64,000 bases of DNA from the NCBI RefSeq assembly GCF_055900595.2, contig NZ_CM148325.1; one strand, written 5' to 3'. Numbering within the stretch: the first letter of the stretch is position 1; the number at the start of each line of letters is the position of its first letter. The notes under the pieces were generated by a model that was given only the letters and a program-made list of their open reading frames with translations, had not been told where the DNA came from and ran no database searches. The translations under genes were made by a program, and so were the position numbers. Below are positions 1,302-3,161 of the stretch, piece by piece.

Positions 1302-3161
1302 ATGATAATAACTTCGCCGTTTAAACCCAATGTGCTGGTGCTTATTTGCAGTGCCGGGCTTTGTGCCGCCTCAGCAGGGCTATATATAAAAAGCCGCACG
1401 CCAGATACCCCCGTCCAACCAGTGCCCGTTGTTGCCACCGTGGCAACAGCCCCACAAATCGGGGAGCAACCGACACCAGTTCCTCCAGCAACGCCTGCAC
1501 CAGAAGTAACGGCAACCCTACCACTTACGCCTGCCAGTACCGCTGAAGTGAAATCGACTTTTACCACTGCGCAAATTGACCAGTGGGTCGCGCCAATTGC
1601 GCTTTATCCTGATGCTTTGCTATCACAAGTATTGATGGCAGCCACTTATCCAACCAATGTGGCACAGGCAGTTCAGTGGTCACGAGATAATCCGACAAAA
1701 CAGGGTGATAATGCTATTCAGGCCGTTTCTGACCAACCCTGGGATGCCAGCGTAAAATCGCTGGTGGCTTTTCCGCAACTGATGGCATTAATGGGCGAAA
1801 ATCCGGAGTGGGTGAAAAATCTTGGTGATGCATTCCTGGCACAACCGCAGGACGTCATGGACTCAGTACAGAAATTACGTCGCCTGGCACAGCAGACCGG
1901 ATCGTTAAAATCAACCGTGGAACAGAAAGTTGTGACCACAACCCGGAAAGCTGCGCCGGTAAAATCTCATGAATCGGAAAACCAGGACACGACGTCTGTC
2001 GCCAGTACAACAACCATTATTACCCAGCCAGATCCCGAACCGACTATTATCACCATTGAGCCAACGAAACCGGACGTAATTTATATTCCAAACTATAACC
2101 CCTCCGTAGTTTACGGAAGCTGGGAAAATACGGCTTATCCACCCGTTTATTTGCCACCACCAGCAGGCGAACCGTTTGTTGATAGCTTCGTGCGCGGCTT
2201 CGGTTACAGCATGGGTGTTGCCACAACGTATGCCTTATTCAGCAATATCGACTGGGATGATGATCATCACGATCATCATCATCATGATGACGACGATCAC
2301 CATAACCACAACGACGACTATCGGGACGGGAAAGCCTGGCAGCATAACGGCGATAATATCAATATCAACGTCAATAATTTCAACCGTATCACGGGCGAGC
2401 ACCTTACTGACAAGAATATGAGGTGGCAGCATAATCCAAATTACCGTGACGGCGTGCCTTACCATGATCAGGATATGGCAAAACGTTTTCATCAAACAAA
2501 CGTCAATGGTGGTATGAGCACCACACAGCTGCCAGCACAGTCTCGCGATATCCAGCGCCAGGAGGCAGCGAGTCAATTTCAACAGCGGACGCACTCTGCA
2601 CCAGTGACCATGCGTGATACACAACGTCAGGCTGCTTCACAGCAATTTCATCAGCGGGAGCAACAGGATGATTTTCGTGATTATGCTCTGCCCCGCCGTA
2701 ACAGCAACACTTCACGTTTTGATGGCGAATACCACAACCGTGAAGACGGGAATGTTCGCCCACCGCAACGCCAGTTAACTCAACAACAGCGGGAGAAAGC
2801 CCGTAAGCGTTATGATTCTGCGACACCTGAGCAGCGCCAGGCGTTTCGTGAGAAAGTTCAGAACCAGCAACGACCGTTGAGTCAGCAGCAAAGGGATAGC
2901 GCCCGCCAGCGTATTCAATCGGCCTCGCCTGAGCAGCGTCAGGCTTTTCGGGAGAAAGTTCAGAATCAGCAACGACCGCTGAGCCAACAGCAAAGGGATA
3001 GCGCTCGCCAGCGAATTCAGTCAGCAACACCTGAACAACGTCAAGTCTTTCGCGAGAATCGCTTGAATGACACCAGCCGCGTCTCCAGACTTAGTAGTGA
3101 GCAACGCTCAGCAGTACGGGAACGTCTCTCTGAGCGCGGAGCAAGGCGACTGGAAAGGTAA
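1302..3161 (+). CDS. yacH: DUF3300-type uncharacterized protein YacH (619 aa) with His/Asp-rich tract and C-terminal tandem repeats
   Basis: ORF track 1302..3161; sits between lpdA and acnB as in E. coli; 354-nt spacing to acnB start matches K-12 as I recall it; N-terminal hydrophobic segment. Confidence 0.85.
   Translation: MIITSPFKPNVLVLICSAGLCAASAGLYIKSRTPDTPVQPVPVVATVATAPQIGEQPTPVPPATPAPEVTATLPLTPASTAEVKSTFTTAQIDQWVAPIALYPDALLSQVLMAATYPTNVAQAVQWSRDNPTKQGDNAIQAVSDQPWDASVKSLVAFPQLMALMGENPEWVKNLGDAFLAQPQDVMDSVQKLRRLAQQTGSLKSTVEQKVVTTTRKAAPVKSHESENQDTTSVASTTTIITQPDPEPTIITIEPTKPDVIYIPNYNPSVVYGSWENTAYPPVYLPPPAGEPFVDSFVRGFGYSMGVATTYALFSNIDWDDDHHDHHHHDDDDHHNHNDDYRDGKAWQHNGDNININVNNFNRITGEHLTDKNMRWQHNPNYRDGVPYHDQDMAKRFHQTNVNGGMSTTQLPAQSRDIQRQEAASQFQQRTHSAPVTMRDTQRQAASQQFHQREQQDDFRDYALPRRNSNTSRFDGEYHNREDGNVRPPQRQLTQQQREKARKRYDSATPEQRQAFREKVQNQQRPLSQQQRDSARQRIQSASPEQRQAFREKVQNQQRPLSQQQRDSARQRIQSATPEQRQVFRENRLNDTSRVSRLSSEQRSAVRERLSERGARRLER

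Follow-up and report, generated by a model that had tools for sequence, protein, structure and literature searches.

The stretch of 64,000 nucleotides analysed here (contig NZ_CM148325.1 of assembly GCF_055900595.2), referred to as the window throughout, carries the gene yacH at positions 1302-3161 on the + strand, listed among its open reading frames (ORFs) as a coding sequence for 619 amino acids plus stop. YacH is best understood as an exported protein of the DUF3300 family, in which a conserved globular core is combined with two low-complexity modules, a His/Asp-rich tract and a C-terminal repeat array, both labile in frame, and the allele present in the window is understood as an import of the Escherichia fergusonii type. 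We hold this composite reading with moderate confidence. The gene is the positional yacH and its product a DUF3300 protein of unknown function; gene, family and exact protein are already catalogued, and the presence of the two tracts, as the initial annotation of this DNA put it, adds little. Length polymorphism of low-complexity protein regions is an ordinary and familiar kind of feature. The more unusual point, lying outside the finding of that annotation, is the deep divergence of the allele together with its probable interspecies import.

Two low-complexity modules that vary in length in frame

The features at issue are as follows.

2250-2318, + strand: His/Asp tract DWDDDHHDHHHHDDDDHHNHNDD, aa 317-339, imperfect GAT/GAC/CAT/CAC triplet repeats
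2769-3149, + strand: array of seven ~17-aa polar helix motifs, aa 490-616, consensus [L/A][S/T]xxQRxxxRxxxQ
2817-2918, + strand: tandem unit 1, 102 bp / 34 aa, SATPEQRQAFREKVQNQQRPLSQQQRDSARQRIQ, from Tandem Repeats Finder (TRF) and reading-frame register
2919-3020, + strand: tandem unit 2 (SASPEQRQ...), from TRF and reading-frame register
3021-3059, + strand: partial unit 3, SATPEQRQVFREN, diverging thereafter into the conserved C-terminal tail

The initial annotation had placed a His/Asp tract at about 2251-2320 and 102-bp tandem repeats at 2818 and 2920. Both are present and in frame, the tract 1-2 nt away from that position and the units, which actually start at 2817, 2919 and 3021, displaced by 1 nt. 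Asp and His account for 20 of the 23 tract residues, compared with 11 in the best 23-aa stretch obtained from 2,000 composition-preserving shuffles of YacH and 12 in the runner-up among all six frames of the 64-kb window, a stretch that coordinate arithmetic puts antisense to the tract DNA itself. The underlying DNA is recognized by TRF as imperfect GAT/CAT repeats with periods of 3 and 12 at 2259-2285. Two ORFs overlap the tract in other frames (2176-2421, + strand, 81 aa; 2235-2624, - strand, 129 aa); their translations consist of Ile/Met/Thr-rich or Val/Met/Ile-rich runs, and neither is a gene: both arise incidentally from the GAT/CAT repeat.

The C-terminal module is built on a ~17-aa motif that occurs in seven copies between aa 490 and 612, the 34-aa unit representing a doublet of it. 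TRF describes the array with a period of 102, 2.3 copies, 83% matches and a score of 332 over 2823-3058. Units 1 and 2 agree in 88 of 102 nucleotides and in 33 of 34 residues; 13 codons differ between them, 12 of these synonymously, which argues that the duplication is old and that the repeat peptide is under purifying selection. The ratio of nonsynonymous to synonymous divergence (dN/dS) relative to K-12 is 0.10 in the repeat region and 0.075 in the whole gene. SASPEQRQ units occur only in Escherichia.

Both modules differ in length between strains, and the in-frame polymorphism is confined to them. The yacH of E. fergusonii CP057101.1 is separated from that of the window by 18 substitutions and only two indels, one of 3 nt (2272-2274, a single His codon) and one of 102 nt (2838-2939). 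Its product (WP_181576266.1, 584 aa) belongs to the same allele class, with 98% amino acid identity, and has two repeat units; one His codon and one 102-bp unit present in the window allele are missing from it. Between cluster-mates of 615, 618 and 619 aa, the sole difference is the length of the tract, which extends over 18, 21 and 22 residues after 'DW', the two shorter forms being those of other E. fergusonii proteins and the longest that of the window. In 60 complete E. coli genomes sampled at spaced ranks, K-12 yacH is matched over 1854, 1851, 1848, 1815, 1764, 1758 or 1662 nt. E. coli alleles with 4, 3 and 2 units encode 617, 585 and 553 aa, in steps of 96 nt, while the tract is cut to 9 residues in a 604-aa allele and measures 24 residues in one of 587 aa. 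Internal duplication is also seen among the non-redundant protein variants, DNDDYHH being one example; a further duplication, apart from these, covers 45 aa. Reading frame is kept in all full-length variants compared. Length changes among full-length Escherichia alleles are multiples of 3 nt or whole units of 96 or 102 nt, and the gene thus does not have the character of a phase-variable contingency locus; the frameshifts encountered, namely an 8-bp deletion in Salmonella Typhimurium and the E. coli representative P0123, are one-off inactivations.

These counts bear directly on the initial annotation, which had named invariance of repeat number and tract length across orthologues as the result that would speak against it. 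The opposite was seen: E. coli orthologues have 2-5 units and tracts of 7-30 aa after 'DW'. The annotation had arrived at a length-variable tract from a protein 2 aa longer than that of K-12, and although variability between strains is borne out for both tracts, its K-12 basis does not hold. The difference between 619 and 617 aa is a coincidental sum, because many indels are spread over the protein and the units are 3 x 34 aa in the window as against 4 x 32-33 aa in K-12; identity between the two proteins is just 68% by BLASTP, the alignment contains 52 gapped positions, and both have 22 aa of tract after 'DW'.

A divergent allele of the E. fergusonii type

Identity of the window protein to K-12 YacH (WP_000784470.1) is 68% by BLASTP and 73% by MAFFT, with 48-52 gapped positions, which fall in the linker near the N-terminus, in the middle region, in the repeats and in the tail. 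At the DNA level, yacH is 55-85% identical to K-12, compared with 98-100% in lpdA and aceF, the lpdA product being an identical protein, and with ~96-97% in the rest of the window. Nei-Gojobori analysis gives a synonymous divergence (dS) of 2.4 for yacH against K-12 (proportion of synonymous differences, pS, 0.72, hence saturated), a nonsynonymous divergence (dN) of 0.18 and 43% identity at four-fold sites, whereas dS in ten neighbouring genes is 0.04-0.31. By region, dN/dS of yacH relative to K-12 varies between 0.03 and 0.30. The allele therefore does not belong to the K-12-type class: its divergence is far above that of the flanks, and it is an outgroup to all other Escherichia alleles. Measured on 500 gap-free codons, it is about equidistant from every other Escherichia allele, that of E. 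albertii included (dN 0.14-0.16, pS ~0.70), while E. albertii and E. coli yacH are separated by a dN of 0.09 and a pS of 0.52. Such equal distance implies that the allele class is old or xenologous, and not recently diverged.

Of 5,426 complete genomes of E. coli, 8 have this class; its other occurrences are proteins named E. fergusonii. With the yacH of E. fergusonii CP057101.1, that of the window shares 98% identity (dS 0.025). The nearest E. coli relative found, 2013C-4282, matches the window genome at 98.6-99.8% in cueO, gcd, hpt, can, yadG, yadH, pdhR and aceE; identity drops to 77% over window positions ~1150-3300 and is 96-98% through acnB-yacL. The latter segment is 99-100% identical between E. 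fergusonii and the window genome (positions 13000-18400 of locus L006, left of the window start), and the block of ~1150-3300 together with acnB-yacL matches E. fergusonii CP057101.1 at 98-100%. A rare lineage of E. coli thus probably acquired an E. fergusonii-type allele through homologous recombination, and the simplest reading of these identity profiles would be a short interspecies import of roughly 5-7 kb. Simple vertical divergence from E. coli yacH was considered and rejected, since synonymous sites are saturated in the gene but unsaturated in its flanks, and since an E. coli-type allele is found in a close E. coli relative. The assignment to E. fergusonii is based on source names and on CP057101.1; a scan of species-representative genomes returned alleles of E. 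whittamii, E. albertii and other Escherichia, and no E. fergusonii representative with this allele; an intact copy may be missing from the representative, or the scan may not have reached it. Within E. coli, about half of the complete genomes sampled have a yacH with just 90-95% identity to that of K-12.

Family membership, protein anatomy and predicted structure

The exact window protein is catalogued in RefSeq as WP_032302390.1, 'DUF3300 domain-containing protein', and is present on 256 contigs. The DUF3300 profile (Pfam PF11737) matches at 262.8 bits (cut-off 25; E 3.1e-78) over aa 89-348, corresponding to profile positions 2-227 of 227, and no NCBIfam model matches YacH. The gene lies between acnB and lpdA, divergent from the former and convergent with the latter, as expected of the positional orthologue. 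An HMMER search of 1.84 billion representative proteins yielded 9,536 relatives; those inspected combine a signal peptide and a conserved core with the motifs 'IN.N.YN' and 'W.HNP.HR.GVPY' and a tail that is basic and of low complexity. No study of YacH structure or of its repeats was found in the open literature. Apart from the two modules, the protein is composed of the following parts.

1326-1388, + strand: N-terminal hydrophobic helix, aa 9-29, helix in the AlphaFold2 (AF2) model
1392-1565, + strand: Pro/Thr/Val/Ala-rich linker, aa 31-88, disordered and indel-prone, predicted local distance difference test (pLDDT) score 46-59
1566-2345, + strand: DUF3300 domain, aa 89-348, PF11737 match
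2349-2501, + strand: conserved module 3' of the tract, aa 350-400, with 'NININVNNFN' and then 'W-x-HNP-x-YR-x-GVPY'
2532-2768, + strand: Gln/Arg-rich middle region, aa 411-489, 19% Gln and 17% Arg

The AF2 model was built from 119 sequences and has a mean pLDDT of 72.6. The highest Kyte-Doolittle 19-mer of the protein (aa 11-29, 2.16) falls within the N-terminal helix, and a typical signal peptide is found at the start of most family members inspected. YacH is predicted to be exported for these two reasons, the helix serving as a Sec signal peptide or signal anchor, which implies a periplasmic location for the rest of the protein. A weak match to NDUFB3 raised the possibility of another membrane helix at aa 295-316, which was rejected because the mean hydropathy there is only 0.5-0.8. 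The linker (22% Pro, 21% Thr, 14% Val, 14% Ala) differs from that of K-12 by 14 gapped codons and by a dN of 0.35; indels are located at aa 41-51 and 80-82. The DUF3300 domain is divided into a helical sub-domain (aa 89-198) and a beta region (aa 208-316), with aa 90-210 modelled at pLDDT 95-98.

The tract lies towards the end of the domain. Between the invariant Trp (W318) and the 'IN.N' motif, 93 of 119 aligned representatives have a loop of 3 residues, and in Escherichia it comprises 32-33. A few other lineages have insertions at the same position that are rich in Gly/Trp or Gly/Tyr/His, and H/D tracts are confined to close enterobacterial relatives. With pLDDT below 50 at aa 325-328 and 334-347, the model and the alignment together show the tract as a lineage-specific accessory loop insertion of ~30 aa that is predicted to be disordered. 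The module that follows is modelled at pLDDT 85-94 and is strongly conserved relative to K-12 (dN 0.06, 0 gaps); its W.H[ND]P.[HY]R.G[VIL].Y motif occurs in 39 of 150 family representatives, W375 being nearly invariant.

The middle region contains two 'RDxQRQxAxxQFxQR' helices (AF2 412-431 and 435-453) and a stretch with pLDDT below 50 at 459-486. It differs from K-12 by a dN of 0.40 and 16 gaps, and it includes the allele-specific segment LPRRNSNTSRFDGEYHNREDGNVRPP (aa ~458-488) that K-12 lacks. Structure prediction of the repeat region, which the initial annotation had proposed, gives polar Arg/Gln helices, one for each ~17-aa motif (492-505, 509-522, 528-540, 543-556, 562-573, 577-587 and 599-616). 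The segment aa 506-619 has a net charge of about +13. Membrane binding through amphipathic helices was rejected on account of the strongly negative mean hydrophobicity of the tail helices (-0.66 to -0.92) and of hydrophobic moments that are low in six of the seven (0.19-0.28), helix 577-587 having one of 0.52.

No relative of YacH by fold or family was found beyond DUF3300. The RskA_N profile (PF22618) scores 21 bits (cut-off 27) when the whole protein is searched and 29.5 bits, spread over 3 short stretches, when the tail is searched by itself. RskA_N is a cytoplasmic N-terminal domain preceding a membrane helix and the YacH match is C-terminal and predicted periplasmic, so that the position misfits; the match most likely reflects a resemblance of helix motifs.

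Natural inactivation, regulation and phenotype

Natural inactivation of yacH has occurred repeatedly. Relative to LT2, an 8-bp deletion of GATCATCA (Asp284fs) has been reported in S. Typhimurium UK-1, 14028s, D23580, SL1344 and a human-milk isolate; it lies in the His/Asp-coding repeat and makes yacH of S. Typhimurium a pseudogene (PMC3391293, PMC10048834). In E. coli SW071611, yacH is broken by an IS1-family element. The yacH ORF of E. coli E69 is shortened to 392 aa, the match being ~730 nt longer than the gene, and the E. coli cluster representative P0123 is a frameshifted YacH with the tract translated in another frame.

YacH is a non-essential envelope protein, predicted to be exported. 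Knock-outs are viable (PMC9600279, PMC7376861), and the deletion mutant survives protamine better (PMC9600279). The gene is listed among those regulated by CpxR, its transcript is lower after exposure to protamine or cecropin (PMC9600279), and its expression is down in a rob mutant (PMC7537768). Surface exposure of YacH is a software prediction only, quoted in PMC9600279. A search for the CpxR box (GTAAA-N5-GTAAA, up to 2 mismatches) returned no site upstream of yacH and a window-wide count at chance level.

Neighbouring features

3174-3202, no strand assigned: candidate bidirectional intrinsic terminator, a hairpin with an 11-bp stem, located between an A-run and a T-run

This hairpin, located between the convergent yacH and lpdA, has a folding energy of -15.1 kcal/mol (z -4.1), and 0 of 200 shuffles were as stable; it is probably a bidirectional intrinsic terminator. 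The hairpin went unlisted in a consensus scan for promoters and terminators, which likewise gave no convincing promoter for yacH. TRF also reports a repeat of 33-bp period and 2.1 copies at 5929-5998 inside aceF, which corresponds to the known Ala/Pro-rich linker region between lipoyl domains.

Discussion

The proposed origin of the length variants assigns a separate process to each module. The GAT/CAT triplet run would gain and lose codons through replication slippage, and in Salmonella the same repeats occasionally drop a number of bases that is not a multiple of three, with a pseudogene as the result. Whole repeat units, being 86% identical in DNA, would be gained and lost through unequal recombination or slippage between units. 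With regard to function, the tract would face the periplasm and might chelate a divalent metal or serve as an acidic flexible spacer, while the basic tail might contact a polyanion of the envelope, for example lipopolysaccharide (LPS), phospholipid head groups or peptidoglycan, unit number possibly setting the reach or avidity of the tail; we place low confidence in each of these three suggestions. Contact with a polyanion would fit the published links of yacH to CpxR, Rob and protamine.

Several considerations weigh against this understanding of the modules. The tract is absent from most of the DUF3300 family and reduced to 7-9 residues in some E. coli proteins, because of which it may have no specific role. 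The tail helices are modelled at pLDDT 55-88, hence with moderate confidence only. Metal and polyanion binding are suggested by composition, and it is from the patterns of indels that we infer slippage and unequal recombination. For the frequencies of the length classes, the analysis covered 60 complete E. coli genomes, chosen at spaced ranks, together with sets of non-redundant proteins.

Adaptive variation offers a different explanation, in which YacH is an exposed component of the envelope under diversifying selection from cationic peptides, phage or immunity, diverged allele classes are kept and exchanged between species, and the tracts act as tuning modules. It draws on the saturation of the window allele against every E. 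coli allele (pS 0.70-0.72, 42-47% four-fold identity) next to neighbours with dS of 0.04-0.31, on the position of the allele outside all others of Escherichia, E. albertii included, and on its sharing between E. fergusonii and one E. coli lineage. Divergence within E. coli points in the same direction, dN between K-12 and UTI89 being 0.037 in yacH and 0.001 in acnB and half of the complete genomes being 90-95% identical to K-12 in yacH, as does the published protamine phenotype (PMC9600279). We nevertheless regard diversifying selection as unlikely, for dN/dS is low throughout (0.03-0.30 by region) and gives no sign of positive selection, the peptide of the repeats has been conserved and not diversified, repeated inactivation suits weak constraint better than an arms race, and surface exposure goes back to the software prediction quoted in PMC9600279. 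A wider version would make yacH a trans-species polymorphic envelope locus, whose allele classes predate the radiation of Escherichia and are exchanged by short imports, with loop and helix array as selectable modules that tune the handling of cationic peptides or metals; taken as a whole, this is decidedly improbable.

The C-terminal repeats could instead be of the LTXXQ type, YacH then being a tethered chaperone or metal sensor with the tract as its metal site. CpxP, Spy and ZraP are periplasmic stress proteins with LTXXQ units, and some periplasmic metal-handling proteins have His-rich loops. YacH is like these proteins in its predicted export, its flexible His/Asp-rich segment, its LTXXQ-like helix starts ('LTQQQR', 'LSQQQR', 'ATPEQR' and 'LSSEQR') and its Cpx link, given that yacH is reported to be CpxR-regulated (PMC9600279). 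It has no match to them in sequence or in fold: the LTXXQ (PF07813) and Metal_resist (PF13801) profiles match neither whole YacH nor its C-terminal fragments at E up to 10, a search in which HMMER filters may hide very weak matches, and the three proteins gave no sequence match from the PDB and no fold match. The likeness is one of resemblance only, and membership in the LTXXQ group appears very unlikely. That the length differences merely reflect assembly or annotation of repetitive DNA is scarcely credible and was rejected. Draft genomes often contain mis-assembled tandem repeats and triplet runs, and many of the non-redundant variants are singletons, yet 14 differences in 102 positions between the units make their assembly unambiguous; the classes of 1854, 1758, 1764 and 1662 nt come up in many complete genomes independently, what is deleted relative to the window amounts to exactly 102 nt in register, all variants are in frame and the exact window protein is on 256 contigs. 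The reading we prefer thus remains that of a conserved exported core with two modules labile in frame, on an allele of E. fergusonii type.

Comparison with known systems places the window protein among its relatives. K-12 YacH (b0117) is alike in the slot between acnB and lpdA, the hydrophobic N-terminus, the Pro-rich linker, the DUF3300 core, the tract and the HNP-YR-GVPY module, as well as in the Q/R-rich tail with SA[ST]PEQRQ repeats and in the C-terminal ending ...ERLSERGARRLER. It differs in having 4 units of 32-33 aa, compared with 3 of 34 aa in the window, the window protein being further distinguished by a longer linker near its N-terminus and by the additional segment at aa 458-488. 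The DUF3300 proteins of other Proteobacteria, such as Cupriavidus and Pseudomonas, share the signal peptide, the core, the motifs 'IN.N.YN' and 'W.HNP.HR.GVPY' and a basic low-complexity tail; they are without the His/Asp insertion. Tails of other DUF3300 proteins often carry tandem repeats specific to their own lineage, such as DRDAARQKAQNV x5 in P0145, which are unrelated to those of YacH. In Cupriavidus and Pseudomonas, a DUF2950 gene is found directly 3' of the DUF3300 gene (E 5e-85 and 1e-100; 4296-5138 on the + strand of locus L081 and 4004-5317 on the + strand of L080). This pair, of unknown function, is conserved there and is not seen beside Escherichia yacH, a gene without such a partner and adjoined by the convergent lpdA. 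Intragenic tandem-repeat polymorphism, resembling variable-number tandem repeats (VNTRs), and polymorphism in the length of triplet repeats are general phenomena in bacterial envelope proteins. The variation of yacH is alike in that whole units and single codons are gained and lost in frame, with several length classes per species. It is unlike recent VNTR expansions, since the units, with 86% identity in DNA as against 97% in protein, are old and conserved, and no on/off switching was seen among Escherichia variants.

Lastly, the anatomy of a y-ome protein with links to CpxR, Rob and protamine is now concrete, in the form of an accessory loop insertion and a modular array of basic helices, and it lends itself to allele-swap work. 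Protein length by itself misleads on allele identity. As an unusually divergent gene in a core position, with evidence of exchange between species, yacH matters wherever it is used for typing or in genome-wide association studies (GWAS).

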